The notes under the pieces are model-generated. The model saw only the letters and a program-made list of their open reading frames with translations. It was not told where the DNA came from and did not search any database. This document shows, one piece after another, positions 1,415-64,000 of a stretch of DNA of 64,000 nt. The stretch comes from Escherichia coli (GTDB taxonomy: Bacteria > Pseudomonadota > Gammaproteobacteria > Enterobacterales > Enterobacteriaceae), in the NCBI RefSeq assembly GCF_009931435.1, contig NZ_CP043414.1; one strand, written 5' to 3'. How positions within the stretch are numbered: position 1 is the stretch's first letter; each line of letters opens with the position of its first letter. The translations under genes and the position numbers were made by a program.

Positions 1415-1416
1415 GT

Positions 1417-2748: not shown

Positions 2749-2752
2749 GACG

Positions 2753-3514: not shown

Positions 3515-3522
3515 GGACGTTT

Positions 3523-7022: not shown

Positions 7023-7026
7023 AAAT

Positions 7027-8442
7027 ATGGCAATGGACTTACGCGATCCGAATGTCTGGATATCGCACCTGCTGGAAAACCTGCCGGAAGAGAAACTGGC
7101 ATCGGCGCTGAAAGATGACAACCCGGACTGGGAGTATATCGACGGCGAAATCGTCAAACTGGGTTCACTGGCCCACAGCCAACTGGATATCCCGGAACTC
7201 CAGCGCCGGGGGCTGGTCATTCTGGCTTCGGAGAGTAAGGATTTTCGTCTGCTGGCACACCTGCTCAGAACCCTGCAACATGCCGGTGATCCACTGCTGG
7301 CACTGCGCCTGCTGGCGCTATACGTGGAACATTACTGGACTGTGGCCGCGCCGCAGAATATGGCGCATAAAAAACGCTTTGCCAGCCAGATCATTAAACG
7401 TTTTGAAACGGGTATTGAAGGCTTTTCACAGAACGCCGCCACCGCGCAGCGCGATGCACTATTAGGTGAACTGGCGAAACTGGCGCAGTGCTGGCAGTCA
7501 CATAACGCCCCGGAACTGGCAGAGGCTACTGATGATCTTTTTGCCCTGTACCAGCGTGCGTTTAATCGTGCGGCACCGGCTCCTGCCCACACTCCGGCGG
7601 CCTCCGGTAGTTCACCACAGACCACCGCCACGTCTGAAAGCGGCGTGACGCAAACCAGTGCTCCGGCTCCACAGATCGCCATCGACAGTCACGACGACAA
7701 AGCCTGGCGCGACACGCTGTTAAAAGTGGCGGCCATTTTATGTGAACGCCAGCCGGACTCGCCGCAGGGCTATCGCCTGCGCCGCCATGCCCTGTGGCAA
7801 TCCATCACCAGTACGCCCCAGGCGGAAAGCGATGGACGCCCCCCACTGGCTGCGGTCTCCGCCGATATGGTGGCAGATTACCATGCTCAGCTCGGTAGTG
7901 CCGATATGGCGCTGTGGCAGCAGGTGGAAAAAAGCGTACTGCTGGCACCCTACTGGCTGGACGGTCACTGCATTTCTGCACAGACGGCGCACCGTCTTGG
8001 CTATACCGCCGTGGCCGATGCCATCCGCGATGAAGTCGTTTCCTTTCTTGGCCGTCTGCCCGCGCTCGCTGATCTTCTGTTTAACGACCACACACCGTTT
8101 GTTTCTGAAAAAACGAAGCAATGGCTTGCAACTCAGCCAGGTAACCAGGCCGCGCCAGTCATACAGGTGAGTAATGAAGATATTCAGGCTGCGCGGTTGT
8201 GTTTTGATGAACAGGGGCTGGAAGCCGCCTTACGGTATCTGGATACGTTGCCCGCCGGTGAACCCCGCGACCAGTTTCACCGGCAGTATTTTGGCGCGCA
8301 GCTTATGGAAGAGGCGGGGCTGGTACAGCTTGCGCAGCAGCAGTACCGGATGTTGTTCAGGATGGGATTGCAGATGATGGTGGCAGACTGGGAGCCGTCC
8401 CTGCTTGAGCAGCTAGAACAAAAATTCACGGCAGAACAATAA
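7027..8442 (+). CDS. tssA: T6SS protein TssA (VasJ-type, ImpA N-terminal domain family)
   Basis: About 471 aa from ATG 7027 (MAMDLRDPNVW); sits at the vasJ position upstream of tssM; N-terminal region resembles the ImpA-N domain. Family assignment is by context and general resemblance. Confidence 0.65.
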   Translation: MAMDLRDPNVWISHLLENLPEEKLASALKDDNPDWEYIDGEIVKLGSLAHSQLDIPELQRRGLVILASESKDFRLLAHLLRTLQHAGDPLLALRLLALYVEHYWTVAAPQNMAHKKRFASQIIKRFETGIEGFSQNAATAQRDALLGELAKLAQCWQSHNAPELAEATDDLFALYQRAFNRAAPAPAHTPAASGSSPQTTATSESGVTQTSAPAPQIAIDSHDDKAWRDTLLKVAAILCERQPDSPQGYRLRRHALWQSITSTPQAESDGRPPLAAVSADMVADYHAQLGSADMALWQQVEKSVLLAPYWLDGHCISAQTAHRLGYTAVADAIRDEVVSFLGRLPALADLLFNDHTPFVSEKTKQWLATQPGNQAAPVIQVSNEDIQAARLCFDEQGLEAALRYLDTLPAGEPRDQFHRQYFGAQLMEEAGLVQLAQQQYRMLFRMGLQMMVADWEPSLLEQLEQKFTAEQ

Positions 8443-8460
8443 AAGAGAACAGGAGTTTTT

Positions 8461-11400
8461 GTGTTCAGATTACCAACACCCCGACTATTCAGCGGACTCA
8501 AATCAGCCCTGCGCCCGGCGATGCCCCGGTTTAAAGTTTCTGCATTCTGGCTGCTGATACTGGCGTGGATTTTCCTGCTGGTATGGATCTGGTGGAAAGG
8601 CCCGGCATGGACGCTGGATGAAGAGCAGTGGCTCAAACCACTGGCGAACCGCTGGCTGGCAACGGCGGCGTGGGGGATTATTGCCCTGGTGTGGCTTACC
8701 GTCCGGGTAATGAAGCGCCTGCAACAGCTTGAAAAAATGCAAAAGCAACAGCGCGAGGAAGCCGTTGATCCGCTCAGTGTGGAACTGAACGCCCAGCAGC
8801 GTTACCTCGACCGCTGGCTGCTGCGCCTGCAACGCCATCTCGACAACCGCCGTTTCCTGTGGCAGTTGCCGTGGTATATGGTCATCGGTCCTGTGGGCAG
8901 TGGCAAAACGACACTGCTGCGCGAGGGGTTTCCGTCAGACATTATTTATGCCCCGGAGGGCGCGCACGGCGCAGAACAACGCCTGTACCTCACGCCCCAT
9001 GTCGGTAAACAGGCGGTGATCTTTGATATCGACGGCACACTCTGCGCTCCCGCTGATGCGGATATCCTGCATCGCCGTCTGTGGGAACATGCCCTCGGCT
9101 GGCTGAAGGAAAAGCGCGCGCGCCAGCCGCTGAACGGGATTATTCTGACACTCGATTTACCCGATCTGCTGACCGCAGACAAACGCCGCCGCGAGCATCT
9201 GTTACAGACGCTGCGCAGCCGCTTACAGGATATACGCCAGCATCTTCATTGCCAGTTACCGGTTTACGTGGTACTGACCCGGCTTGATTTATTGCAGGGT
9301 TTTGCCGCCCTGTTTCAGTCACTGAACAGACAGGATCGCGATGCGATTCTGGGTGTTACGTTCACCCGCCGTGCTCATGAAAATGATGACTGGCGAACAG
9401 AGTTGAATGCTTTCTGGCAGACATGGGCGGATCGAATGAATCTGGCGTTGCCGGATCTGATGGTCACCCAGACTCACACCCGCGCGTCTTTATTTAGTTT
9501 TTCCCGCCAGATGCAGGGAAGCCGTGAACCGCTGATATCACTGCTGGAGGGTCTGCTTGACGGCGAAAATATGAACGTGATGCTGCGTGGTGTCTATCTC
9601 ACCTCTTCGCTTCAGCGTGGACAGATGGATGATATATTCACCCAGTCTGCTGCCCGCCAGTACCGACTGGGCAATAACCCACTGGCGTCCTGGCCTCTGG
9701 TGGACACCGCGCCTTATTTCACCCGCAGCCTGTTCCCGCAGGCATTACTCGCAGAGCCTAATCTGGCAACAGAGAGCCGCGCCTGGCTGATGCGTTCCCG
9801 TCGCCGCCTGACGGTTTTCTCTGCCACAGGCGGCGTGGCGGCACTGCTGCTCATCACCGGCTGGAATCACTATTACAACGGTAACTATCAGTCCGGCATC
9901 ACCGTGCTTAAGCAGGCCAAAGCCTTTATGGACGTGCCGCCTCCGCAGGGGGAAGATGACTTTGGTAACCTACAACTGCCGCTGCTGAACCCGGTACGCG
10001 ATGCCACACTGGCCTATGGCGACTGGGGTGACCGCAGCCGCCTGGCCGATATGGGACTGTACCAGGGGCGACGTATCGGGCCTTATGTGGAACAGACCTA
10101 TCTGCAACTGCTGGAGCAGCGTTACCTGCCCTCGCTGTTTAACGGGCTGGTCAAAGCGATGAACGCCGCACCGCCGGAGAGTGAGGAAAAACTCGCGGTG
10201 CTGCGCGTGATGCGAATGCTGGAGGACAAAAGCGGACGCAACAATGAGGTGGTGAAGCAGTATATGGCAAAACGCTGGAGCGAAAAGTTCCACGGACAGC
10301 GCGATATCCAGACACAACTGATGTCCCATCTTGACTACGCGCTGGCTCATACTGACTGGCATGCAGAGCGTCAGGCGGGCGACGGTGATGCCATCAGCCG
10401 CTGGACGCCATATGACAAGCCTGTTGCGACAGCACAGAAAGAACTGAGCAAACTGCCTGTCTACCAGCGGGTTTACCAGAGCCTGAAAACGCGGGCGCTG
10501 GGCGTTCTTCCTGCTGACCTCAATCTGCGTGACCAGGTAGGGCCAACCTTTGACCAGGTGTTTACATCTGCCGATGATAACAAACTGGTTGTTCCACAGT
10601 TTCTTACCCGTTACGGCCTGCAAAGCTATTTTGTAAAACAGCGCGATGAACTGGTTGAACTGACGGCGATGGATTCCTGGGTACTCAACCTCACCCGCAG
10701 CGTGAAATACAGTGACGCCGACCGCGCGGAAATTCAGCGCCAGTTGACCGAGCAGTATATCAGCGACTACACCGCCACCTGGCGGGCCGGGATGGACAAT
10801 CTCAATATCCGCAATTTTGAGTCCATTGGACAACTGACTGGCACTCTGGAGCAGGTTATCAGCGGCGACCAGCCTTTGCAGCGGGCGCTGACCGTGCTGC
10901 GTGACAACACACAGCCAGGCGTCTTTTCTGAAAAACTCTCTGCCAAAGAGCGGGATGAGGCCCTGGCAGAGCCGGATTACCAGTTACTCACCCGCCTCGG
11001 GCATGAATTCGCCCCGGAAAACAGTACCCTGACAGTACAGAAAGACAAAGAAAGCACGATGCAGGCCGTATACCAGCAGCTCACCGAGTTACACCGCTAC
11101 CTGCTGGCAATCCAGAACGCGCCTGTACCAGGGAGATCGGCGCTGAAAGCCGTGCAGTTAAGGCTTGATCAGAACTGCAGCGATCCAATATTCGCCACCC
11201 GCCAGATGGCAAAAACACTGCCTGCTCCGCTCAACCGCTGGGTAGGCAGGCTGGCTGACCAGGCCTGGCATGTGGTGATGGTGGAAGCCGTTCACTATAT
11301 GGAAGTGGACTGGCGCGACAGCGTGGTGAAACCGTTTAACGAGCAACTGGCAAATAACTATCCGTTTAATCCACGTTCTGCACAGGATGCCTCACTGGAT

Positions 11401-11985
11401 GCCTTCGAACGATTCTTTAAACCGGATGGCGTACTGGATACCTTCTACCAGCAGAACCTGAAACTGTTTATCGACAATGATCTGAGCCTGGAAGACGGCG
11501 ATAACAGCGTCATTATCCGCGAAGATATTATTGCGCAACTGGAAACCGCGCAGAAAATCCGTGACATCTTCTTCAGCAAACAGAACGGTCTGGGAACATC
11601 CTTTGCCGTGGAAACGGTATCGCTTTCCGGCAACAAACGCCGCAGCGTACTGAACCTTGACGGCCAGTTAGTCGATTACAGCCAGGGCCGTAACTATACC
11701 GCCCATCTGGTCTGGCCTAACAATATGCGCGAAGGCAACGAAAGCAAACTGACGCTGGTTGGTGCCAGCGGCGGCGCACCGCGCAGTATCAGCTTCAGCG
11801 GGCCGTGGGCGCAGTTCCGCCTGTTCGGGGCCGGACAACTGACCGGAGTACAGGATGGCAACTTTACCGTGCGCTTTAGCGTGGACGGTGGCGCGATGAC
11901 CTACCGTGTGCATACCGACACCGAGGATAACCCGTTCAGCGGTGGGTTGTTCAGCCAGTTTGGTCTGTCAGACACACTGTACTGA
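8461..11985 (+). CDS. tssM: T6SS membrane-complex protein TssM (IcmF family)
   Basis: 1174 aa; N-terminal transmembrane helices, Walker A NTP-binding motif GPVGSGKTTLL and long periplasmic C-terminal region; GTG start preceded by AGGAG at 8451-8455. Confidence 0.9.
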   Translation: MFRLPTPRLFSGLKSALRPAMPRFKVSAFWLLILAWIFLLVWIWWKGPAWTLDEEQWLKPLANRWLATAAWGIIALVWLTVRVMKRLQQLEKMQKQQREEAVDPLSVELNAQQRYLDRWLLRLQRHLDNRRFLWQLPWYMVIGPVGSGKTTLLREGFPSDIIYAPEGAHGAEQRLYLTPHVGKQAVIFDIDGTLCAPADADILHRRLWEHALGWLKEKRARQPLNGIILTLDLPDLLTADKRRREHLLQTLRSRLQDIRQHLHCQLPVYVVLTRLDLLQGFAALFQSLNRQDRDAILGVTFTRRAHENDDWRTELNAFWQTWADRMNLALPDLMVTQTHTRASLFSFSRQMQGSREPLISLLEGLLDGENMNVMLRGVYLTSSLQRGQMDDIFTQSAARQYRLGNNPLASWPLVDTAPYFTRSLFPQALLAEPNLATESRAWLMRSRRRLTVFSATGGVAALLLITGWNHYYNGNYQSGITVLKQAKAFMDVPPPQGEDDFGNLQLPLLNPVRDATLAYGDWGDRSRLADMGLYQGRRIGPYVEQTYLQLLEQRYLPSLFNGLVKAMNAAPPESEEKLAVLRVMRMLEDKSGRNNEVVKQYMAKRWSEKFHGQRDIQTQLMSHLDYALAHTDWHAERQAGDGDAISRWTPYDKPVATAQKELSKLPVYQRVYQSLKTRALGVLPADLNLRDQVGPTFDQVFTSADDNKLVVPQFLTRYGLQSYFVKQRDELVELTAMDSWVLNLTRSVKYSDADRAEIQRQLTEQYISDYTATWRAGMDNLNIRNFESIGQLTGTLEQVISGDQPLQRALTVLRDNTQPGVFSEKLSAKERDEALAEPDYQLLTRLGHEFAPENSTLTVQKDKESTMQAVYQQLTELHRYLLAIQNAPVPGRSALKAVQLRLDQNCSDPIFATRQMAKTLPAPLNRWVGRLADQAWHVVMVEAVHYMEVDWRDSVVKPFNEQLANNYPFNPRSAQDASLDAFERFFKPDGVLDTFYQQNLKLFIDNDLSLEDGDNSVIIREDIIAQLETAQKIRDIFFSKQNGLGTSFAVETVSLSGNKRRSVLNLDGQLVDYSQGRNYTAHLVWPNNMREGNESKLTLVGASGGAPRSISFSGPWAQFRLFGAGQLTGVQDGNFTVRFSVDGGAMTYRVHTDTEDNPFSGGLFSQFGLSDTLY

Positions 11986-11995
11986 GGAGGCAGGG

Positions 11996-13348
11996 ATGAA
12001 TAGTAACGTACTGACACAAACTATCGTTACCGGCAGTGACCCGCGCGGGCTGCCGGAATTCAGCGCCATCCGCGAGGAAATAAACAAAGCCAGCCACCCG
12101 TCACAGCCTGAGCTGAACTGGAAACTGGTGGAGTCGCTGGCGCTGGCGATTTTTAAAGCTAACGGTGTGGATTTACACACCGCCACCTACTATACGCTTG
12201 CACGGACACGGACACAGGGACTGGCGGGCTTTTGCGAAGGTGCGGAACTGCTGGCGGCAATGGTAAGCCACGACTGGGATAAGTTCTGGCCGCAGGGCGG
12301 CCCGGCGCGTACTGAAATGCTGGACTGGTTTAACTCCCGAACCGGCAATATTCTGCGTCAGCAAATCTCCTTTGCGGAATCCGACCTACCACTGATCTAC
12401 CGCACGGAGCGGGCATTGCAGCTTATCTGCGACAAACTCCAGCAGGTAGAGCTGAAGCGCGTTCCGCGCGTGGAGAATCTGCTCTATTTTATGCAGAACA
12501 CGCGTAAACGGCTTGAACCCCAGCCGAAGAGTAACGCCGAGAACACCTCACAGACCACGGTCAGAACGCTGATTTATGCACCGGAAACAATGGCTTCCTC
12601 CACGCCAGAAGCAGTAGTGCCTCCCCTGCCCGACCTGCCCGAGATGAAAGTGGAAGTGCGCAGTCTGTCAGAAAATCCCCCACAGGCCAGTGTGATGAAG
12701 CAAGGCAGTACGGTAAGAGGGTTTATCGCAGGGATCGTCTGTTCAGTGGCTGTCGCCTCAGCATTGTGGTGGTGGCAGGTCTATCCGGTGCAGCAGCAAC
12801 TGTTACAGGTTAACGACACCGCGCAGGGCGCAGCAACGGTGTGGATGGCCTCACCTGAACTCGAAAACTATGAGCGCAGGTTGCAACAGCTTCTTGGCGT
12901 CTCCCCGGTACAACCGCTGGAAACCGGAATGCAGATGATGCGTGTTGCCGACAGTCGCTGGCCGGAAAGCCTGCAACAGCAACAGGCCTCGACACAATGG
13001 AATGAGGCACTCAAAACCCGCGCACAGAGTAGCCCGCAGTTGCGTGGCTGGTTGCAGACCCGCCAGGACTTACATGCTTTTGCAGATCTCGTGATGCAGC
13101 GCGAGAAAGAGGGACTAACCCTTTCCTATATCAAAAATGTCATCTGGCAGGCGGAGCGGGGACTGGGGCAGGAAACACCCCTGGAATCCCTGCTGACGCA
13201 GTACCAGGATGCCCGTGCACAGAAGCAGAATACAGATGCGCTGGAAAAACAAATTAATGAGCGACTCGAAGGCGTGTTAAGCCGCTGGCTGCTGCTGAAG
13301 AATAACGTCATGGCAGAGGCGGCAACCGGGACCACGACCGGAAAATAA
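11996..13348 (+). CDS. T6SS accessory protein, VasL/TagA-like, membrane-anchored
   Basis: About 450 aa from ATG 11996 with GAGGAGG RBS; one internal hydrophobic helix (FIAGIVCSVAVASALWWW); occupies the vasL position immediately after tssM. Confidence 0.55.
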   Translation: MNSNVLTQTIVTGSDPRGLPEFSAIREEINKASHPSQPELNWKLVESLALAIFKANGVDLHTATYYTLARTRTQGLAGFCEGAELLAAMVSHDWDKFWPQGGPARTEMLDWFNSRTGNILRQQISFAESDLPLIYRTERALQLICDKLQQVELKRVPRVENLLYFMQNTRKRLEPQPKSNAENTSQTTVRTLIYAPETMASSTPEAVVPPLPDLPEMKVEVRSLSENPPQASVMKQGSTVRGFIAGIVCSVAVASALWWWQVYPVQQQLLQVNDTAQGAATVWMASPELENYERRLQQLLGVSPVQPLETGMQMMRVADSRWPESLQQQQASTQWNEALKTRAQSSPQLRGWLQTRQDLHAFADLVMQREKEGLTLSYIKNVIWQAERGLGQETPLESLLTQYQDARAQKQNTDALEKQINERLEGVLSRWLLLKNNVMAEAATGTTTGK

Positions 13349-13371
13349 TTATTTAGTTAAAGGAGATTATC

Positions 13372-13854
13372 ATGGCAAATATGAGTTATTTATCTTTAAG
13401 TGGGGAGACACAAGGGCTGATTTCAGCGGGTTGCTCAACGCTTGACTCTGTCGGAAACAAAGCGCAGTTAGAGCATAAAGATCAGATCATGGTTTATGCG
13501 CTAATGCACTCCATCTCAAGAAGTCAGAATGTCAATCATCATGAACTGGTCATCACCAAGCCTGTTGATAAATCCTCACCGTTGCTGGCAAAAGCACTTA
13601 GTGACAATGAAAAAATGACAGCGTGTGAATTTATACTCTACCGAACCAGTAAAGAGGGCATTAACCAGCCTTACTATAAAATAAATCTGTCAAAAGCCAG
13701 GATATCAAGTATTGATTTTGTCACACCTCATGCTGTTCTGGAAAAAGAACTGGAGCCACAGGAGAGAATTGCCTTTATTTATGAAGATATTTCCTGGGAG
13801 CATACGTTAGCCAGGACGAATGCAATGAGTAAATGGCAGGATCGTGTACAGTAA
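13372..13854 (+). CDS. hcp: T6SS tube protein Hcp (TssD)
   Basis: 160 aa; N-terminus MANMSYLSLSGETQG and overall size match the Hcp family; AAGGAG RBS; lower GC than the upstream core genes. Confidence 0.9.
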   Translation: MANMSYLSLSGETQGLISAGCSTLDSVGNKAQLEHKDQIMVYALMHSISRSQNVNHHELVITKPVDKSSPLLAKALSDNEKMTACEFILYRTSKEGINQPYYKINLSKARISSIDFVTPHAVLEKELEPQERIAFIYEDISWEHTLARTNAMSKWQDRVQ

Positions 13855-13896
13855 CATACTGCAATAACATAATAACTTACTATTACGGAGAGATAA

Positions 13897-14811
13897 ATGG
13901 CTGGTTTAAGGAATAATAACAACACACAGAATGCACAGTGGGCTGATTATGTGGGTGACATTCTTCGGGGGTCTCAGCCGATAAACCAGCTAGTACCTCA
14001 GCACCCTTATCTTAACGACATCCCACTCATTGATGAGTTAAGGCGTCAGAACACTCATCATGTTATTCTTTTGACATTTGATGTTGCAAAAAAAATACTC
14101 AACCCAATAACATCATTTGATTACATTCATTTTATCACTACACATCCTTCAGGTATAAAAGATACACTAGCCTGGTTAGTTAACGCGGGTAAATTAATGA
14201 CTGAGTTTGATGAAAATGGGAAAATTATATTTAACCTTAATACCTTAAAGTATACAAAAGCAAGTTACTTTGAAATACTTGGAGAGAAATATATAAAAAT
14301 CACAACATCCAGCCCCTGGCTTTTAGAAAAGCTCGGTAAATATATTTTCTCTTCACGAGCGCCTCAAGTTCTGGAGCTCGCTATTGGCTGGCGAGGAGCT
14401 TTATCTGAATCAATAAAAGGAGTTAAGTTCTGTATCTGGTTTTCAGTAGCCTGGAGAACCATAGAATTTATTATGAGTTCAGAGCGAGATCTGGTTAATT
14501 TTCTTGGTGATTTTTCAATGGATGTGGCCAAAGCAGTGATTGCAGGCGGTGTTGCAACCGCTATTGGAAGCCTGGCTTCTTTTGCCTGTCTTAGTTTTGG
14601 CCTTCCAGTAATTCTTGTAGGAGGAGCAATTTTACTTACAGGGATAGTGTGTACAGTTGTTTTAAATGAAATCGATGCTCAATACCATTTATCAGAAAAA
14701 TTAAAAGATGCAATTAGAGATGGACTAAAACAGCAACAGGAACTTGATAAATGGAAAAGGGAAAACATGACTCCATTTATGTATGTTCTTAACACCCCCC
14801 CCGTGATATGA
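13897..14811 (+). CDS. Hypothetical protein with C-terminal glycine-rich transmembrane helices; candidate T6SS effector
   Basis: 304-aa ORF 42 nt downstream of hcp with RBS; AT-rich; C-terminal third has 2-3 hydrophobic helices with small-residue motifs (VIAGGVATAIGSLASFACLSF, LPVILVGGAILLTGIVCTVVL). The C-terminal 112 codons from an internal ATG at 14473 appear to match what I recall as the K-12 yafU remnant (from memory, unverified). Confidence 0.6.
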   Translation: MAGLRNNNNTQNAQWADYVGDILRGSQPINQLVPQHPYLNDIPLIDELRRQNTHHVILLTFDVAKKILNPITSFDYIHFITTHPSGIKDTLAWLVNAGKLMTEFDENGKIIFNLNTLKYTKASYFEILGEKYIKITTSSPWLLEKLGKYIFSSRAPQVLELAIGWRGALSESIKGVKFCIWFSVAWRTIEFIMSSERDLVNFLGDFSMDVAKAVIAGGVATAIGSLASFACLSFGLPVILVGGAILLTGIVCTVVLNEIDAQYHLSEKLKDAIRDGLKQQQELDKWKRENMTPFMYVLNTPPVI

Positions 14812-14820
14812 GGATTAACT

Positions 14821-15288
14821 ATGTGTTTACATGTTAAATTGAAAGAGTTTCTTTCGATGTTTTTTATAGCCATGTTATTTTTCCCTGCATTCAATGCTTC
14901 TTTGTTTTTTACCGGAATTAAACCTCTATACTCAATAATAAAAGGCTCCACGGAAATATTTTATGATTGGAGAATGTTGATTCTATTCTTCGGTTTCATA
15001 TCGTTTTCCTTGTTAAATATTCATGTAATTTTACTAACGATAATAAAATCATTCTTAATAAAAAAAACAAAGGTAATCAATTTCGCCACAAACATAACAA
15101 TACAGCTAACTCTTATATTTTTACTAATAGCTATCGTAATAGCACCTTTAATAGCTCCTTTTGTCACAGGATATGTCAATGCTAATTATCACCTCTGCGG
15201 TAATAACACGGGGATTTTCCCAGGAGCAATCTATATTAAAAATGGCATGGAATGTAATAATGATTATATTTCTCACAAGGAAGATTAA
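14821..15288 (+). CDS. Small polytopic inner-membrane protein; candidate immunity protein (possibly the ykfM homologue)
   Basis: 155 aa, extremely AT-rich, at least three predicted transmembrane helices; starts 9 nt after the stop of the 304-aa gene. Position relative to yafT and aspV matches my recollection of K-12 ykfM. Confidence 0.55.
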   Translation: MCLHVKLKEFLSMFFIAMLFFPAFNASLFFTGIKPLYSIIKGSTEIFYDWRMLILFFGFISFSLLNIHVILLTIIKSFLIKKTKVINFATNITIQLTLIFLLIAIVIAPLIAPFVTGYVNANYHLCGNNTGIFPGAIYIKNGMECNNDYISHKED

Positions 15289-15429
15289 GCAGTTAAATAT
15301 TATAAAACAAACAGTTTTTAACTCCGGATTCCATGTCCTTTTTTGCACTGTCTTTGTCAGGAAAAAATTTCTTATGCAAAGAATTTTGTATTATTGCCGC
15401 CAGAAATCCCTGCCGGCAGATATAATTTA

Positions 15430-16215
15430 TTATTGATAGCGGTTAACCAAATCTTTTACCATCGCTTTATAGGTCTTTTGCTTAAGTTGCATGATTTGCT
15501 GCTCTGTCATATCAGTCGTACTGGCTTCATTCTTGCCGGGCAATGGTGGAAGCACTTTATATTCATAATTCATCGGCGACCAGGCAGCCCACTCACCTGT
15601 AGCTACATCCACCAGCGTGAATCGCACCAGATAGCGCAGTGAGATTGTGTTAGTCAGTTTTTCATTTTTATAATCGGACCATACTGTTGATTTCAGCGCA
15701 GAGTCATATTTTCCTGTCTGCAACGTATCATGGTAAACAATAATCGCTTTCTGATGCCCTTTCGCAGCCACAAAACGCAATGCCTGCATCCAGTTCATAT
15801 TTTCAGCACTGGCAACATCCTCGTTCTCATTTTTATCTTTATTTTTGTTACAAGTCAGAGGCTTTTGCCTGTCCGGGATACCAGAGAATGTGGAAACAGT
15901 ATAATATTTTCTCATCTCCTCCTGCATAATGGTTTCCGGTGCGCGACTGCCAGACTGGACAAGTATTACGGGAGAATTGAGAGGCACACGAAACTCATCT
16001 CCTTCAAGCGCAGCCTGAATATCCTCCTCGGATACAGCCAGAGTGGTTTCATTACCGAATAAATCTTTGTCTGTCAGTTGCGGGGGAATGTTTTTATTAA
16101 TATTACTTTGTGTAACCTGAGCTTTTTTCTTTTTTTCATCAATAGAAGATTGAGAGGCACATCCTGCAAGCAGCGAGAATAATACACATATGCAACAAAC
16201 CTTTTTTGAATTCAT
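15430..16215 (-). CDS. yafT: Lipoprotein YafT
   Basis: 261 aa with signal peptide and lipobox (LLAGC); size and location next to aspV correspond to yafT of the E. coli backbone. Confidence 0.65.
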
Positions 16216-16482
16216 AATCGGACACTCCCTCGCCTGTCATAATGATTAGAATATTTAGCACTGATAACGGACTCTAATTATATACCCCACTTAAATAATA
16301 ACAAACAAAATCAACATGAAATATACATTCATTTAATCAATATAAAATTATTCTCTAAAAATATATTTAAGTTGAATGGTTCTATATCATTATTGAATTT
16401 TAATAAATGAGACAACAAGAGAGAGTTACACACTTACGCCAGAGTAAAATCATTGAACAGAGAAATTGCGGGATTTAAATGC

Positions 16483-16514
16483 AAAAAAACCGCAAAATTA
16501 AAAATCTTGCGGTT
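16483..16514 (-). terminator. Rho-independent terminator downstream of aspV
   Basis: On the minus strand: inverted repeat AACCGCAA / TTGCGGTT followed by a T-run (plus-strand A-run at 16484-16489). Confidence 0.5.
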
Positions 16515-16540
16515 CTCTGAACTCATTTTCATGAGTGAAT

Positions 16541-20964: not shown

Positions 20965-20996
20965 AAAAAGGCACCGATTCCCCCGGTGCCTTTTTA
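20965..20996. terminator. Bidirectional rho-independent terminator between convergent mltD and yafE
   Basis: Hairpin GGCACCG-(loop)-CGGTGCC flanked by an A-run upstream and a T-run downstream on the plus strand. Confidence 0.6.
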
Positions 20997-20997
20997 T

Positions 20998-21768
20998 TTA
21001 TGCTGCTTTATGTGCTTCTACCATGATGATATCACTGGTGAAAGAGCCATCATTCTGCAAGGCAAAATACGTTTTCACCTCTGTCGATGCGCTCTGTTGG
21101 TAAACGCGAATAGCGTCTACTAACGTTTCTGGCGTACGCATTCTCGCGACCCATGAAGAAAATTCCAGCGGTAACTTATCTGTAATTAAATTATCAACTA
21201 TCAGATTGGCTTCATTGATTAACGTCAACCACTCACCGCTGGCGTAGTTTCGTACGTGTGAGGTATCGCGTAATGCTTCTGCCGTCTGTAACCAGATGTC
21301 GCGCACTGGGTGACCCGGAGACATTACGTCCATCACAATCAGCTTACCGCCAGGTTTCAATATCCGATTCACTTCACGCAGTGCTGCACCAACATCATGC
21401 CAGTGATGGGCAGAATAACGGCTGATAACAATATCAAATGCGTTATCGGCAAATGGCAGACTTTCGGCATAACCCTGGCGGGTGGTGATATTTTTCAGTT
21501 GCCGGGCTTCAGCAGCTTGTGCCACGACATCCAGCATTTGGGCAGATAAGTCATACGCCACCACCGCGCTAACGTTCTGCGCAGCGACAAAGCTGGCATG
21601 CCCTGCTCCGCAGCCCATATCAAGTACACTTGCATCAGGATAATCAGCCAGACGCACCGCCAGGCGCTGTAAATCTCGCCCGGATGCATGTACGGTACTG
21701 GTTAAATACTCACTGGCCTGCGAGCTAAACTGCTTTTCTACGTGGTCATGGTGGGATTGTGTTGTCAT
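20998..21768 (-). CDS. yafE: SAM-dependent methyltransferase YafE
   Basis: 256-aa ORF with methyltransferase motif LDMGCGAGH; position between mltD and yafD; exact start uncertain. Confidence 0.8.
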   Translation of the reverse strand: MTTQSHHDHVEKQFSSQASEYLTSTVHASGRDLQRLAVRLADYPDASVLDMGCGAGHASFVAAQNVSAVVAYDLSAQMLDVVAQAAEARQLKNITTRQGYAESLPFADNAFDIVISRYSAHHWHDVGAALREVNRILKPGGKLIVMDVMSPGHPVRDIWLQTAEALRDTSHVRNYASGEWLTLINEANLIVDNLITDKLPLEFSSWVARMRTPETLVDAIRVYQQSASTEVKTYFALQNDGSFTSDIIMVEAHKAA

Positions 21769-21844
21769 TGCGCTGTCCTTTTGTTATTTGATTAAAAAGG
21801 GCAGCGCCAAACGTTGGTCTGCCCTGTGGCAGACCTGACATACC

Positions 21845-24891: not shown

Positions 24892-25011
24892 ATGCCTGGC
24901 AGTTCCCTACTCTCGCATGGGGAGACCCCACACTACCATCGGCGCTACGGCGTTTCACTTCTGAGTTCGGCATGGGGTCAGGTGGGACCACCGCGCTAAG
25001 GCCGCCAGGCA
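24892..25011 (-). rRNA. rrfH: 5S ribosomal RNA
   Basis: 120 nt; reverse complement matches E. coli 5S rRNA end to end (TGCCTGGCGGCC...GGAACTGCCAGGCAT). Confidence 0.95.
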
Positions 25012-25104
25012 AATTCTGTTTCATCAGACCGCTTCTGCGTTCTGATTTAATCTGTATCAGGCTGAAAATCTTCTCTCAATCCGCCAAAACACCTTCGGCG
25101 TTGT

Positions 25105-28008
<2,904 letters not shown>

Positions 28009-28191
28009 TCACAACCCGAAGATGTTTCTTGCGATTCATCATCGTGTTGCGAAAATTTGAGAGACTCACGAACAACTTTCGTTGTTCAGTGTTTCAATTT
28101 TCAGCTTGATCCAGATTTTTAAAGAGCAAAACTTCGCAGTGAACCTTTGCAGGTACACTCTGAAGTATTTTTTATTTAATCACTACAGAGA

Positions 28192-28267
28192 TGGTGGAGC
28201 TATGCGGGATCGAACCGCAGACCTCCTGCGTGCAAAGCAGGCGCTCTCCCAGCTGAGCTATAGCCCC
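28192..28267 (-). tRNA. alaV: tRNA-Ala (anticodon UGC), spacer tRNA
   Basis: 76 nt; reverse complement matches GGGGCTATAGCTCAGCTGGGAGAGCGCCTGCTTTGCACGCAGGAGGTCTGCGGTTCGATCCCGCATAGCTCCACCA. Confidence 0.95.
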
Positions 28268-28309
28268 ATAACATGTAGTTAAAACCTCTTCAAATTTGCG
28301 GTGCAAATT

Positions 28310-28386
<77 letters not shown>

Positions 28387-28454
28387 GTAGAGGTTTTACT
28401 GCTCATTTTCATCAGACAATCTGTGTGAGCACTGCAAAGCACAGTTCTTTAAGG

Positions 28455-29996
<1,542 letters not shown>

Positions 29997-36752: not shown

Positions 36753-37586
36753 TTGTATAAAATGGATAAACCAAAGGCGCATTGCCGCCTGCTTCTCCCC
36801 TGCTTTCTTTCACTTTCGGCCTGTACCGTTGATATCAGCCAGCCAGACTCATCAGCCACAGCGGTAGATACCGAGGCAAAAACATGGGCAGTCAAATTCC
36901 AGCATCAAAGCTCTTTCACCGAACAATCAATAAAAGAAATAACAGAACCTGATCTCAAACCCGGCGATTTACTGTTCTCCTCAAGCCTCGGGGTAACCTC
37001 ATTTGGTATCCGCGTCTTCAGCACTTCCTCAGTGAGCCACGTTGCAATCTTTTTGGGAGATAATAACGTTGCAGAAGCGACAGGAGATGGCGTCCAGATT
37101 GTTTCCCTTAAAAAAGCGATGAAGCATAGTGATAAGCTTTTCGTCTTACGAGTCCCGGATCTTACCCCGCAACAAGCCACAGAAATTACCGCGTTTGCCA
37201 ATAAAATCAAAGATAGCGGTTATAACTATCGCGGCATTGTCGAATTTATTCCATTTATGGTGACTCGCCAGATGTGCTCACTGAATCCGTTCTCCGAGGA
37301 TTTTCGCCAACAGTGCGTCAGCGGCCTGGCGAAAGCGCAGTTAAGCAGTGTGAGCGAAGGAGACAAAAAGTCGTGGTTTTGTTCGGAATTTGTCACTGAT
37401 GCATTTGCCAAAGCCGGACATCCGCTTACGCTGGCACAGTCTGGCTGGATTAGCCCTGCCGATCTGATGCATATGCGTACTGGCGATGTCTCTGCGTTTA
37501 AGCCAGAAACGCAATTAGAGTATATTGGGCACTTGAAGCCAGGGATTTATATCAAAGCGGGTCGCTTCGTTGGGTTGACTCAGTGA
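36753..37586 (+). CDS. yaeF: Putative lipoprotein YaeF (NlpC/P60-like)
   Basis: 277 aa with signal peptide and lipobox (LSACT); conserved position after proS. Confidence 0.7.
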   Translation: MYKMDKPKAHCRLLLPCFLSLSACTVDISQPDSSATAVDTEAKTWAVKFQHQSSFTEQSIKEITEPDLKPGDLLFSSSLGVTSFGIRVFSTSSVSHVAIFLGDNNVAEATGDGVQIVSLKKAMKHSDKLFVLRVPDLTPQQATEITAFANKIKDSGYNYRGIVEFIPFMVTRQMCSLNPFSEDFRQQCVSGLAKAQLSSVSEGDKKSWFCSEFVTDAFAKAGHPLTLAQSGWISPADLMHMRTGDVSAFKPETQLEYIGHLKPGIYIKAGRFVGLTQ

Positions 37587-37612
37587 TAAAAGCCAGCCTC
37601 GTCCACAAAATA

Positions 37613-37710
37613 CCGGATGAGGCGTGAGCGCCTTACCCGGCCTACAAAATCGTGCTAATACAAAATGTTGCATTATTGGCTGTAGGCCTGATAAGCGCTG
37701 CGCATCAGGC
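37613..37710. repeat. BIME: two inverted REP elements
   Basis: CCGGATGAGGCGTGAGCGCCTTACCCGGCCTAC and, in opposite orientation, GTAGGCCTGATAAGCGCTGCGCATCAGGC; both resemble the REP consensus; located between convergent yaeF and nlpE. Confidence 0.6.
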
Positions 37711-37741
37711 AATTTTTCGTTTGTTTCTGTCTCACGATGGC

Positions 37742-38452
37742 TTACTGCCCCAAACTACTGCAATCCTGGTGCGGGTAAAATTTACCTGCCGTATCGGGCG
37801 CAAATACTTTGGTCGGCGCACCAGTATCCGGATTAGCCTCAAGCGTAAAGTGACCTTCTACTGACAGTAACACTGGTTTCTCGCTGTTGCCGCGGGCAGC
37901 CAAATAGCCCCGTTCCAGCTCAGCGTTATTCGCTACCATGAAACGTTTTCCGGTCGCACAATCAGTAAAGGTTGCCGCATCAGCCATATAAAAATACATG
38001 CCGCGTAGAGTCATCGGCGTCACTGGCAGGCTGGATTTTGCCGGTTCCAGTGTATAGTTGAACTGCGATTCGATCGGATTGCCTTCACGATCGAGCATCT
38101 CCAACGCATCTCCTTTCGCCCGATAATATGACTTTTCACCTTTACTGTCGGTTAATACCAGTTTGTCAGCGGTTCGCGCCCATGTACCGTAGGAGGCGAA
38201 AGAGGAAGGCTCTTCACGCGCGCCCAGATAACGCTCATTCATCACCCAGGTTCCATCTTTTTCGAGGAACAGAGAGGTTTCGATACCTTCGCAATCAGCA
38301 CACGGCAGCACGCCGCGCCAGCTTTGCGGCATCGGCTTCAGTTCAGCGGCCTGCGCCGGAGAAAGCGTATCGACTTCGGCTCGATTATTACATCCCATCA
38401 GAGTAAAGAGGCTGATTACAGCCATCGCTGTCACTATCGCTTTTTTCACCAT
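37742..38452 (-). CDS. nlpE: Envelope stress-sensing lipoprotein NlpE (CutF)
   Basis: 236 aa; lipobox LMGC; CXXC motif (CADCEG); matches NlpE. Confidence 0.85.
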   Translation of the reverse strand: MVKKAIVTAMAVISLFTLMGCNNRAEVDTLSPAQAAELKPMPQSWRGVLPCADCEGIETSLFLEKDGTWVMNERYLGAREEPSSFASYGTWARTADKLVLTDSKGEKSYYRAKGDALEMLDREGNPIESQFNYTLEPAKSSLPVTPMTLRGMYFYMADAATFTDCATGKRFMVANNAELERGYLAARGNSEKPVLLSVEGHFTLEANPDTGAPTKVFAPDTAGKFYPHQDCSSLGQ

Positions 38453-38465
38453 CCATTCCTTCTTT

Positions 38466-38888
38466 TTATTCCCGACCGCCGCGCACTTTGCCGCGCAACG
38501 CCTTCACGCTTGATTTTTGTGCTTTCGATACCAGCCTGCGCTCTTTTGATGCGCGGGTAGGTCGTGTCGGTCGCCGGTTTTTTTGTTCTGTTGTTAATTC
38601 TTTAATCACTGCCACCAGCCGAGCCAGCGCCGCTTCGCGGTTCAGTTCCTGGCTGCGGTATTCCTGTGCCTTGATGACTATCACTCCATCGCTGCTAATC
38701 AGATGATGGCTGGCAGCGAGCAGGCGCTCTTTGTAATACTCTGGCAGGCTGGACGCTCGAATGTCAAAACGCAGATGAATAGCCGTTGAGGTCTTATTAA
38801 CATGCTGTCCGCCCGCGCCCTGTGCACGAATAGCAGTGATCTCAAACTCGCCATCGGGGATAGCAACATGTCGGGAAATCATAATCAT
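38466..38888 (-). CDS. arfB: Alternative ribosome-rescue factor ArfB (peptidyl-tRNA hydrolase YaeJ)
   Basis: 140 aa with GGQ motif ([12 protein letters not shown]) and a basic C-terminal tail. Confidence 0.9.
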
Positions 38889-39430
38889 GAAGGTTGTTGC
38901 CAGGCGATTAAATTTACTTCCAGATTATTCTTATCATCCGATAACCAAATCACCCCATCCTGAATCGTTGCCTGCAGCGTCATGGTACGATCGGCAAAGG
39001 CGCTCACTTTTGCCAGTTGCTCGTCGTCCAGATACCAGACAGAAAGATTGGCAAACTGCGCACATTTGCTCTGATTTTGCTGCCACCAGATTTGCGCCGC
39101 CCGACTATTATAGGCAAACAGCGCCACTTCTGCGGCCTGGGTGCAGGCTTTCTTAATCCGCCGCTCATCCGGCAGCCCCAGTTCAATCCACAAATCAATG
39201 CCCAGATGATCATTACGCAGCCACGCTTCCGGCTCATCATCGGCACACAAACCTCGGGTAAATTGCAGACGTTCATCAGCATATTTCAGCCACGCCAGCA
39301 GGCGCAGCATCATGCGCTCCTGGGTTTCTGAAGGATGGCGCGCCAGCGTCAGAGAGGCATCGAGAAACTGGTTGCGGTCGAGATCGGCCACATTAACCGT
39401 CGCTTTATAAATTGTCGCTTTAAGCGCCAT
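38885..39430 (-). CDS. yaeQ: YaeQ family protein
   Basis: 181 aa; conserved backbone position; 4-nt overlap with the arfB start. Confidence 0.8.
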
Positions 39431-39595
39431 AAGAAAACTCCTTTCGAATCAGGAGGCCATTGTAACGGAATACATGCAGTTGCGGCGCTGATATTGCAGA
39501 AATGAGTGTGGTATAGTCACCTTGCGAAACAGAGTTTATCTTCGTAGGCTTAGACTTGCATCCACGGTTAAGTCAGAGTGCTGACAGGAGGGCAT

Positions 39596-39796
39596 GTGGA
39601 AAAATATTGTGAGTTAATACGCAAGCGGTACGCGGAAATCGCCAGCGGAGACTTAGGATACGTTCCGGACGCGCTGGGCTGCGTTTTGAAAGTGCTGAAT
39701 GAAATGGCTGCCGACGATGCCCTTTCTGAGGCTGTCAGGGAAAAAGCAGCATACGCTGCGGCAAACTTACTGGTGAGCGATTATGTCAATGAATGA
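39596..39796 (+). CDS. yaeP: UPF0253 family small protein YaeP
   Basis: 66 aa from GTG 39596 ([28 protein letters not shown]...), preceded by AGGAGG at 39586-39591. Confidence 0.75.
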
Positions 39797-40043
39797 TACG
39801 TATCAACCAATCAATTGTGATGATTACGATAATCTTGAGCTCGCCTGCCAGCATCATTTAATGCTGACACTTGAGCTGAAAGATGGCGAAAAACTGCAGG
39901 GGAAGGCCAGCGATTTAGTCTCCCGCAAAAATGTGGAATATCTGGTCGTTGAAGCTGCTGGCGAAACCCGCGAGCTACGCCTGGATAAAATTACCAGCTT
40001 TAGCCACCCGGAAATTGGTACGGTGGTGGTGAGCGAGTCCTGA
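39789..40043 (+). CDS. rof: Rho-binding anti-terminator Rof (YaeO)
   Basis: 84 aa ([21 protein letters not shown]...); 8-nt overlap with the yaeP 3' end. Confidence 0.8.
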
Positions 40044-40052
40044 TTGACTTTC

Positions 40053-40085
40053 GCCGGATGCGACGTTTGAAGCGTCTTATCCGGC
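40053..40085. repeat. REP element between convergent rof and tilS
   Basis: GCCGGATGCGACG...CGTCTTATCCGGC palindromic REP-like sequence. Confidence 0.5.
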
Positions 40086-40091
40086 TTTCAC

Positions 40092-41390
40092 TTAACTAAG
40101 CGTTTTCTTCCAGACAAAACTTACGCCATTCTCACCTTCGGCCACACCTTCTTGCGTCACAAATACCTCTGCCGCTGCAATCAGCGTTTCGCCATAAAAC
40201 AGCAGTGGCGTGGTGTCACGCAGCCACGGCGGTACGCCCAGTTCCTGCCAGATTTTCTTTAGCTTACGTCCGCCGTTGCGGCCGACAATATGCAGCAATC
40301 CTGGCGCTTTGAAACGCACGCTGACCGCTTCGTCTGCACGCGGAGGGCGAATATCGCCTCCCGCAGTAAGTTGTACACTTCCCAGCGCCGCCGGTAATTC
40401 CAGCGGTTGTAGCCACGTCTGCCACGGCACAATGGTTTCGCTTTGCCCAGTGACGGATTTAATCCACCACAGTTGCGACTGATAGCGGCGGATTTCAAAC
40501 GCACCCAAACGTAAACAGGGGGAAGCATCTTCTCGCGCCAGCGCCACTTCCTGCCAGATCCTCACCAACGCGTCGCGGGAAGGCATCGGTGCATTCTGCC
40601 CTGCCAGCCAGCGGCGGATAATCGCCGCGCGACGGGCATCACTCATCGCCAGCATTGGCGCAATCTGCAGCGTCCCCTGCGGCGTTTGACAGTGTGCTAA
40701 ATCATCTGCCAGCAGTTCATCCAGCAGGCTCTCTTGCTCAGCACAAAGTGCAGCGCTGCGGGCCGTTGCTTCGGCAAAATGCGGCCAACGCTGCTGCAAT
40801 AACGGCACTACGCGCAGGCGCAGGAAGTTACGATCGTATGAGTCGTCCTGATTACTTTCGTCTTCAATCCAACGTAAACCATGCGCCAACGCCCACTGCT
40901 CCAGTTCTCCCCGTGTGCGGGCGAGCAACGGGCGGATCAGCCGCGTTCCGGCAAACTCCGAGACTTCCGCCATAGCCGAAAGCCCTGCAGGGCCGCTACC
41001 ACGTTTTAACGCCAGCAGAAACGTTTCACATTGATCGTCGAGATGTTGCGCTGTAACCAGCACTTCACCAGGTAACAGGGTACGAGCAAATGCCTGATAA
41101 CGTGCCTGCCGCGCCTGCGCCTCAATACCTAGCCCCTCTTGCGCAAGTTGCACACGCTCAACCACCAGCGGCACCTGCCACTGCTGGCAGATATTTTCAC
41201 AATGTTTCACCCAAGCATCAGCGTTGGCACTTAAACCGTGATGCACATGAATAGCGCGCAGGGTGACGCCCGGATTTTCCGTCCGCCACTGCACCAACTG
41301 ATGCAGCAGAACGGTGGAGTCAAGCCCGCCGCTAAAGGCCACCAGAATCTGGCGTGAGATGAGAAGTTGTCTATTGAGCGTGAGTGTCAT
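40092..41390 (-). CDS. tilS: tRNA(Ile)-lysidine synthetase
   Basis: 432 aa; PP-loop ATPase motif SGGLDS near the N-terminus. Confidence 0.9.
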
Positions 41391-62920: not shown

Positions 62921-62946
62921 AAAAAGGGGGCCATATGCAGGCCCCC
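62921..62946 (-). terminator. Intercistronic hairpin terminator/attenuator between rpsB and tsf
   Basis: On the minus strand: GGGGGCC-TGCATAT-GGCCCCC followed by T5, in the 258-nt rpsB-tsf spacer. Confidence 0.6.
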
Positions 62947-63121
62947 TAACCAAACGTGTACTACCTGGTCTATAAGGGCTCTCCCCCCTTCATATTTCGC
63001 GCCGCAGATGCGTTGTCTTCGCTCGCTCATCCCGGTCACTTACTGATGTAAGCTCCCGGGAATTCTCGAGCTTGCCGCCTTTCTGCAACTCGAACTATTT
63101 TGGGGGAGTTATCAAGCCTTA

Positions 63122-64000
<879 letters not shown>

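Follow-up and report, generated by a model that had tools for sequence, protein, structure and literature searches.

According to Harris et al. (2026), about 60% of REPs lie between convergent genes, and 207 of 704 convergent gaps contain one. The element REP325 is both a partly Rho-dependent terminator and an mRNA stabiliser. In the same study, genes that end in REPs did not in general have longer-lived mRNAs, and the effects were widely spread. Two single loci of Escherichia coli K-12 are of particular interest here. Table S16 of Harris et al., which lists bidirectional terminators mapped between convergent genes, includes REP16 (y REP at 216053-216093) and REP15 (213630-213673), both detected in log phase as well as in stationary phase. 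The dataset consists of transcript 3'-end maps, in which true termination and trimming back to a hairpin are not separable.

The conserved tetranucleotide GTAG, which is found 5' of the REP stem, is needed by the REP-associated tyrosine transposase (TnpA-REP, or RAYT) for binding and cleavage (PMC3333891).

How do the elements of another E. coli strain compare? The DNA analysed here is a 64-kb stretch, referred to as the window. It contains three elements belonging to the E. coli REP (palindromic unit) family: two in the gap between yaeF and nlpE, and one between rof and tilS. Both sites are already known, being annotated in K-12 as REP16 and REP15, and the two loci of the window are their orthologs. 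The most probable explanation, to which we give a probability of roughly 0.8, is that these REPs act as RNA-level 3'-end hairpins at convergent gene junctions.

Identity of the three REPs

The window was searched with two models built solely from K-12 REPs of other loci. An nhmmer profile made from 26 K-12 REPs drawn from 240 kb, with the two orthologous sites masked, gave three matches in the whole window: the z1 unit at yaeF/nlpE (E = 1.6e-6), the rof/tilS REP (E = 1.6e-5) and the y unit at yaeF/nlpE (E = 3.7e-5). The next best match had E = 1.5. An unfiltered search with a covariance model, built from 19 distinct K-12 REPs, scored the same three elements at 41.6, 40.8 and 35.3 bits, respectively (E = 1e-10 to 1e-8), followed by a match of 11.0 bits (E = 0.4). 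The consensus pattern CTTATCMGGCCTAC is found at the three places with 0, 1 and 2 mismatches. Among the K-12 REPs the hairpin is backed by 95.6% paired cells and by compensatory changes at 4 of 11 pairs. The stems in the window have 10-14 pairs with an internal bulge or mismatch and predicted energies of -12.9 to -21.5 kcal/mol, and folding z-scores indicate that their stability is high in comparison with shuffled sequence. Of 5426 E. coli genomes, 5425 contain 18 or more matches each to the 111-nt yaeF/nlpE element (median at least 40), which is therefore a member of a dispersed repeat family. All three REPs are extragenic, lying between stop codons (Table 1).

Table 1. Features of the two REP loci and of the regions used for comparison, in window coordinates
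Feature	Position	Strand	Remarks
Type VI secretion island	1 to about 16.5 kb		
Canonical bidirectional terminator	20965-20995	both	7 T in 8 in the tail on each strand
yaeF stop codon	37584-37586	+	TGA, then TAA; 25 nt before y REP
Spacer	37587-37611		25 nt
Tail of y hairpin	37604-37611	-	ATTTTGTG; 3' of hairpin, nlpE sense; 5 T in 8
y-type REP	37612-37645	-	+ strand reads ACCGGATGAGGCGTGAGCGCCTTACCCGGCCTAC; inverted (iREP) on + strand
CTAC of y REP	37642-37645	+	GTAG on - strand, read 37645 to 37642
L linker	37646-37681		BIME-1 linker, 36 nt
IHF-like core	37658-37670		ATACAAAATGTTG
z1-type (short) REP	37682-37711	+	GTAGGCCTGATAAGCGCTGCGCATCAGGCA; GTAG at 37682-37685
T-rich tail of z1 hairpin	37711-37726	+	AATTTTTCGTTTGTTT; 3' of hairpin, yaeF sense; 6 T in 8
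nlpE stop codon	37742-37744	-	31 nt from z1 stem
rof stop codon	40041-40043	+	REP 9 nt after
Single REP	40053-40085	-	GCCGGATGCGACGTTTGAAGCGTCTTATCCGGC; ortholog of K-12 REP15; covariance-model match spans 40052-40089
GAAA in place of GTAG	40086-40089	-	read 40089 to 40086, covariance-model alignment
Tail of rof/tilS hairpin	40086-40093	+	TTTCACTT; 3' of hairpin, rof sense; 5 T in 8
tilS stop codon	40092-40094	-	REP 6 nt after

The earlier note had proposed, from the letters, a two-REP BIME at 37613-37710 and a single REP at 40053-40085, both at convergent gene ends. Scanning with REP models returned significant matches at both places, by nhmmer and by the covariance model; the BIME coordinates agree to within 1-2 nt, and the gene names and convergent arrangement are confirmed by the open reading frames and by the annotation of matching genomes. 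Comparison with annotated E. coli sites, also suggested there, identifies the loci as those of REP16 and REP15. No annotated REP features were found in the RefSeq K-12 feature tables, and the comparison relies on Table S16 of Harris et al., where the two sites carry the labels REP15 and REP16.

No other REP was found in the 64-kb window, the type VI secretion island included, by either nhmmer or the covariance model. The earlier note was thus right that the REPs are confined to the backbone, although the point carries little weight: with REP loci as dense as in K-12 (12 in 240 kb), about 0.8 loci would be expected in 16.5 kb, with a probability of about 0.44 of finding none, and the absence of REPs from the island is therefore not statistically meaningful. 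The segment 51160-51173 was considered as a fourth REP and rejected; it is the one further place in the window with no more than 2 mismatches to the tail motif CTTATCMGGCCTAC (it has 2), but it lacks the palindrome and its model score is noise. The naRNA4 family (Rfam RF02564) matched at 27.3 and 25.0 bits, below its gathering threshold of 59.5, and the resemblance reflects only the REP-derived origin of that family.

Structure and alleles of the two loci

The yaeF/nlpE element is a canonical single-copy BIME-1, in which a y unit and an inversely oriented z1 unit are joined by the 36-nt L linker. The covariance model places y on the minus strand and z1 on the plus strand and finds no further units. 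A BIME-2 would have y and z2 REPs joined by a short S linker in tandem copies; the window element has no z2, its linker is 36 nt long and it is a single copy. The z1 and z2 classes were assigned from the definitions in PMC3333891, the named sucB-sucC BIME-2 and L-linked copies. By these standards z1 is a short Z, as in BIME-1 copies elsewhere, and z2 is the long Z, the type carried by the sucB-sucC BIME-2.

The y REP is matched by the covariance model over its full length and forms the stem GCCGGGU.AGGCG/CGCCU.AUCCGGU with a CUCA loop (-19.8 kcal/mol, z = -4.2). It aligns with the y REP of K-12 REP16 as its ortholog and departs from the y consensus at five positions; one of these changes converts one of the two stem mismatches to an A-U pair, leaving a single usual mismatch. 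The stem of z1 is GCCUGAU..GCG/CGC AUCAGGC. The L linker aligns position for position with those at yijF-gldA, mscS-fbaA, yaaX-yaaA and cueO-gcd. When the BIME is folded as a whole RNA, a long y:z1 hairpin is predicted to be preferred over two local hairpins, and any terminator-like reading of the element therefore depends on co-transcriptional folding. The spacer between the yaeF stop codon and the y REP resembles the 3' half of the K-12 z2 in one alignment and not in another, and as a decayed z2 half it received no nhmmer model score.

Is this the same element that is found in K-12? The flanking genes, the orientation, the y REP and the L linker are common to both strains. However, K-12 REP16 has lost z1 and has a z2 joined to y by a 12-nt linker, followed by L, in a gap of 199 bp, whereas the window has y-L-z1 in a gap of 155 bp. 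Of 5426 complete E. coli genomes, 2837 have the y-L-z1 junction, which is also present in Escherichia sp. E1V33, and the K-12 z2 insertion is matched at 95% identity or more by 2045 records. The locus is thus polymorphic: whole REPs distinguish its major alleles, of which there are at least two, and its exact form cannot be essential. The K-12 reference carries a rearranged and probably derived allele. The two alleles also differ in their U-rich tails, which are present on both outer sides of the window element and on neither side of the K-12 REP16 allele.

The rof/tilS locus shows a different picture. The single REP fills the whole 48-bp gap, and its hairpins have predicted energies of -21.5 and -20.9 kcal/mol (z = -5.0 and -4.0). 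It is nearly invariant and present in 5417 of 5426 E. coli genomes; a scan of genome contigs with the REP and its flanks returned only Escherichia sp. E1V33, at 94.8% identity to the window. K-12 REP15 is identical to the window copy except for one loop base, with the same distances to the two stop codons and the same GAAA, and Table S16 of Harris et al. gives identical flanks for the K-12 site; there is no difference of substance between the two. By profile the rof/tilS copy is a REP, although the motif required by TnpA-REP is missing from it.

Transcript 3' ends and alternative roles

Which features of these junctions bear on the formation of 3' ends? By synteny with K-12, genes converge at five places in the window backbone. 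At two of these the gene ends overlap; the other three have a gap, which is occupied by the REPs in two cases and by the canonical bidirectional terminator of Table 1 in the third. In the K-12 sample, 8 of 12 REP loci lie between convergent genes. A strict terminator scan called nothing at either REP site, because it needs uninterrupted stems and REP stems contain internal mismatches. A hairpin-plus-tail table, in which an internal mismatch is allowed, was used in its place. The z1 (plus strand), y (minus strand) and rof senses have 5-6 T in 8, and the tilS sense, with the tail GAAAGTCA, has 2. Three of the four directions therefore look like weak intrinsic terminators.

Most likely, the elements act at the RNA level: each of the convergent transcripts would read into the element and end with a stable, G+C-rich stem-loop. 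This stem-loop would mark or cause the 3' end and hinder 3'-to-5' exonucleases, and in this way keep transcription from running on antisense to the facing gene. In the window allele of the BIME, a U-rich tail follows whichever hairpin is distal for the transcript: z1 in the yaeF direction, y in the nlpE direction. The tilS direction, which lacks a U tract, would need Rho or exonucleolytic trimming to the hairpin. At rof/tilS the hairpin is so close to both stop codons that ribosomes terminating on either mRNA may also be slowed by it.

The terminating or stabilising role suggested in the earlier note is supported, through orthology, by the published data on the K-12 sites, and a bidirectional 3'-end role in the strain of the window is inferred from these. 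The transcript data come from K-12, and the dominant step may be termination, a block to decay or an effect on translation.

That the main effect is on translation is a less likely possibility for the rof/tilS REP. Here the hairpin would stall terminating ribosomes, leading to mRNA cleavage and ribosome rescue and thereby to lower synthesis of Rof and TilS. According to the summary in PMC12306157 of work by Liang, Rudd and Deutscher (2015), translation is lowered by REPs that lie within fewer than 16 nt of a stop codon. The 9 and 6 nt measured directly at this locus fall inside the range given in that summary, and the same spacing is found in K-12. The BIME, at 25 and 31 nt from its stop codons, lies beyond it. 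Furthermore, tilS is an essential gene, which makes strong attenuation unlikely.

Might the REPs instead be passengers? They could be remnants of REP/BIME spread and rearrangement by TnpA-REP/RAYT that are tolerated as harmless at 3' ends and have no selected function here. BIME content is known to vary among strains (PMC3333891), the yaeF/nlpE alleles differ by whole REPs, each in thousands of the genomes or records counted above, and both REPs of the BIME retain GTAG. The rof/tilS REP fits poorly with this, being nearly invariant in almost every E. coli genome and without GTAG. In addition, convergent 3' ends in K-12 coincide with both REPs, and the y REP and L linker are kept in both alleles and in another Escherichia species. 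We consider the absence of a selected function rather doubtful on these grounds. A mobile origin can be compatible with present use as a 3'-end hairpin, however, and the two readings are not exclusive of each other.

Action at the level of DNA is unlikely. The BIME-1 would then be a site for IHF (of the RIB/RIP type), topoisomerase or polymerase I that shapes topology between the convergent units. The L linker is indeed the one conserved among BIME-1 elements, where an IHF site is frequent (PMC3333891), and an IHF-like core is found at the same offset as in other L linkers. The core in the window, however, agrees with WATCAANNNNTTR at only 7 of 9 specified positions, with the conserved TCAA changed to ACAA; other L linkers and other E. 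coli orthologs reach 8-9 of 9, and 16% of random 36-nt segments of the window reach 7 of 9. Gyrase cleavage, which is unreported for BIME-1, is enriched in BIME-2 (PMC6379681), to which class the window element does not belong. At rof/tilS, where the REP stands alone, there is no linker, and Harris et al. found neither an effect of REP325 on chromosome compaction nor long-range contacts between REPs.

A more elaborate proposal for rof/tilS is quite improbable. Because GTAG is absent and the REP is found in nearly all E. coli genomes, the element could be a domesticated copy. Its distances of 9 and 6 nt from the two stop codons would allow it to couple translation termination to 3'-end formation on both mRNAs, as a shared control point. 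In matching genomes Rof is annotated as an antiterminator that binds Rho. Since Rof binds Rho, termination at REPs can be partly Rho-dependent and the tilS side has no U tract, the tilS 3' end might respond to the level of Rof; if so, a small feedback loop would join rof and tilS.

Finally, that the elements are chance palindromes or ordinary gene-specific terminators rather than REPs is refuted by the scans and by copy number, given covariance-model scores at least 24 bits above background, E values of 1e-5 to 1e-6 from a profile trained on other loci, tens of copies per genome and a strict terminator scan that does not call these sites either.

Comparison with known systems

The value of these results lies mainly in correct annotation: two intergenic hairpins are the orthologs of REP16 and REP15, and the REP16 site is refined to a BIME-1. 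The allele difference is a small point and does not amount to a novel type of system. Should REPs tune 3'-end formation, which recent work proposes, the two alleles, with their different tails, could give strain-specific expression of yaeQ-arfB-nlpE and yaeF.

The elements of the window belong to the same palindromic-unit family as REP325 (yjdM-yjdN), for which the terminator and stabiliser activities were shown in a 3'UTR. In contrast to REP325, they consist of one or two units and lie between convergent genes. The BIME-1 (RIB/RIP) copies at yijF-gldA, mscS-fbaA and cueO-gcd are closer in structure, with the same y-L-z1 order, a linker of 35-36 nt and the same offset of the core. They differ from the window copy in their IHF match (8-9 of 9, compared with 7 of 9), and the yijF-gldA and mscS-fbaA copies are located between co-directional rather than convergent genes. 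The REPINs of Pseudomonas (PMC3116915) also have two inverted REPs and a spacer that can be folded into one long hairpin, like y:z1. They are associated with a RAYT transposase and belong to a different sequence family, whereas the arrangement of the window BIME also occurs in another Escherichia species.

Three REPs at two gene junctions

The earlier note had placed a two-REP BIME between yaeF and nlpE and a single REP between rof and tilS, and the three REPs are legible directly in the sequence at those positions. REP models independent of the window were made from 240 kb of K-12 with the two orthologous gaps masked, the REPs being collected by iterative nhmmer from three consensus seeds, each 100% identical to K-12 occurrences. 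The resulting 26-member profile gives exactly three matches in the whole window, all of them clear (E = 1.6e-6 to 3.7e-5); all others have E ≥ 1.5. A covariance model built from 19 distinct K-12 REPs, run on all 64 kb with filters off, scores 41.6, 40.8 and 35.3 bits, and the next match reaches 11.0 bits. The two scans agree on both elements, and the observation is confirmed. Chance palindromes are excluded. Rfam holds no REP family, and its sole matches here are to the REP-derived naRNA4, below threshold. Across the K-12 REP family, 95.6% of cells in the hairpin are paired, with compensatory changes at 4 of 11 pairs. The 111-nt BIME has at least 18 matching places per genome in 5425 of 5426 complete E. 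coli genomes (median at least 40).

Neither scan finds a REP in the type VI secretion island (1-16.5 kb). The remark that REPs are confined to the backbone is thus accurate but carries no evidential weight: given 12 loci per 240 kb, the island would be expected to hold only about 0.8, with P(none) about 0.44, so their absence is no evidence of anything. The G+C content of the island is 56-60% over 1-12 kb, and at least 80% of it is covered in 2658 of 5426 E. coli genomes. K-12 can still be aligned to 14455-16540, on the yafT/ykfM/yafU side.

Features of the window, with hairpin tails scored as T in the 8 nt after the hairpin
Feature	Position	Strand	Details
aspV-linked type VI secretion cluster	1-16540		tssM, tssH, tssA, VasL-domain protein
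aspV	16545		
Textbook bidirectional intrinsic terminator	20965-20995		AAAAAGGCACCG...CGGTGCCTTTTT; yafE/mltD convergent gap
rrnH	24894-29996		
StyR-44	28016-28124	-	inside rrnH spacer; Rfam match above threshold
yaeF stop codon	37584-37586	+	gene downstream of proS(+)
y REP, inverted	37612-37645	-	yaeF/nlpE BIME; nhmmer E = 3.7e-5 over 37613-37645; nlpE-sense tail ATTTTGTG, 5 T
Linker	37646-37681		36 nt, between y and z1
z1 REP	37682-37711	+	yaeF/nlpE BIME; nhmmer E = 1.6e-6; yaeF-sense tail AATTTTTCG, 6 T
nlpE stop codon	37742-37744	-	across gap from yaeF
arfB(-), yaeQ(-), yaeP(+)			order between nlpE and rof
rof stop codon	40041-40043	+	
rof/tilS REP	40053-40085	-	nhmmer E = 1.6e-5; rof-sense tail TTTCACTT, 5 T; tilS-sense tail GAAAGTCA, 2 T
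tilS stop codon	40092-40094	-	across gap from rof; then yaeR, ldcC
CssrA	62926-63036	-	Rfam match above threshold
t44	63875-63961	-	Rfam match above threshold

Element types and predicted hairpins

A BIME-1 occurs singly and joins y to z1 by a long, conserved L linker, in which there is often an IHF site; BIME-2 elements, made of y and z2, are repeated in tandem and have short linkers (PMC3333891). The sucB-sucC element, named as BIME-2 (PMC6379681), carries the long Z, so the short Z is z1. Because the y-linker-z1 layout of the yaeF/nlpE element is that of the copies at yijF-gldA and mscS-fbaA, the element is a canonical BIME-1. Its linker can be aligned with four other L linkers, with an IHF-like core at the identical offset. 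This core, ATACAAAATGTTG in this lineage, matches WATCAANNNNTTR at 7 of 9 positions, as against 8-9 in the other copies; a 7/9 match is reached in 16% of random segments, and IHF binding here is therefore not claimable. At rof/tilS the REP stands alone; its outer stem halves are y-like and its inner ones z2-like. It has GAAA at the position of the family's GTAG, which TnpA-REP needs for binding and cleavage (PMC3333891).

The predicted RNA hairpins have energies of -19.8 (y), -12.9 (z1) and -21.5/-20.9 kcal/mol (rof/tilS REP), with z-scores of -2.0 to -5.0, and the whole BIME RNA is predicted to be able to form one long y:z1 hairpin (about -50 kcal/mol, z about -3.4). A strict terminator scan makes no call at either REP site because REP stems carry an internal mismatch. 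The tails in the table were scored with this mismatch permitted; by the same count, no K-12 BIME hairpin has a T-rich tail (at most 3 T in 8). The rof/tilS hairpin starts 9 nt past the rof stop codon and 6 nt past that of tilS. Both distances lie within the range (<16 nt from a stop codon) for which Liang et al. 2015, according to the summary in PMC12306157, reported reduced translation by REPs; a similar effect may occur here.

Alleles, origin and source lineage

The yaeF/nlpE gap is polymorphic among E. coli. In K-12 it spans 199 bp: z2 is followed by 12 nt, then by y and L, and z1 is deleted. Of 5426 genomes, 2837 have a single copy of the window-type left junction (yaeF stop, spacer, y); the K-12-specific insert occurs at ≥95% identity in 2045 records, and about 540 genomes remain. 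Since y-L-z1 is also carried by Escherichia sp. E1V33, a separate species-level genome, the window type is probably the ancestral form, and that of K-12 the derived one. A weak, degenerate REP-like remnant, CGGATAAGGCATTTAC, adjoins the yaeF stop in the K-12 allele (K-12 fragment L001, 11160-11175, E = 0.87) and suggests that REPs have been gained and have decayed here more than once. In the window, RNA folding predicts that the spacer CCUCGUCC (37587-37611) between the yaeF stop and the y REP can pair with the y 5' arm GGAUGAGG. This spacer may be what is left of half a REP, or it may offer a pairing that rivals the y hairpin; its two alignments to K-12 disagree.

Did these elements arise as neutral or selfish sequences through TnpA-REP? 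For the BIME, which is polymorphic, this origin is well supported. It is a poorer fit to the rof/tilS REP, which lacks GTAG, is present in 5417 of 5426 genomes at ≥80% coverage and differs from K-12 by one loop base. Even with such an origin, the elements could now serve as 3'-end hairpins. The case for a DNA-level role through IHF or gyrase is weak: the linker has a degraded IHF core, it is for BIME-2 that gyrase enrichment is reported, and the lone REP lacks a linker.

Over 42000-64000, some 18 genomes labelled E. coli are 99.3-99.4% identical to the window and all others 95-99%; over 37300-40400, identity to most genomes is only 94.8%. The source lineage is divergent and distinct from E1V33, and may be a cryptic Escherichia clade.

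Convergent junctions and transcript ends

The window runs in reverse orientation to K-12, and synteny gives five convergent junctions in its backbone, two of which are gene-end overlaps with no gap. Two of the three gapped junctions hold these REPs; yafE/mltD, the only one without, holds the bidirectional terminator (serial 17 in Table S16 of Harris et al.). About 196 bp (21605-21801) absent from K-12 code for the 5' part of yafE, including its methyltransferase motif LDMGCGAGH. K-12 yafE appears to be 5'-truncated by a deletion between the short repeats TTTGGCGCTGC and TTTGTCGCTGC.

Table S16 lists REP15 (serial 14, 213630-213673; affected genes rof:yaeP:ldcC:tilS:yaeR) and REP16 (serial 15, 216053-216093; arfB:nlpE:yaeF:yaeQ) among mapped bidirectional terminators, both detected in log and stationary phase (Harris et al.). 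Serial 14 is the ortholog of the rof/tilS REP, and serial 15 that of the y REP. The data behind the table presumably come from the SEnd-seq work of Ju, Li and Liu 2019. The terminating or stabilising role that the earlier note proposed for these junctions is supported through this orthology to mapped K-12 sites.

According to the Harris et al. preprint, REP325 stabilises mRNA as well as acting as a partly Rho-dependent terminator; for genes with terminal REPs it reports no general gain in half-life, with widely spread effects. The same preprint places about 60% of REPs between convergent genes, counts a REP in 207 of 704 convergent gaps, and reports higher expression of convergent pairs with a REP than of those without. 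In the 240-kb K-12 sample, 8 of 12 REP loci lie between convergent genes, and the K-12 and window samples agree with Harris et al. on REPs at convergent junctions. By comparison with known K-12 sites, the elements of the window are already known: they are REP15 and the commoner, BIME-1 allele of REP16.
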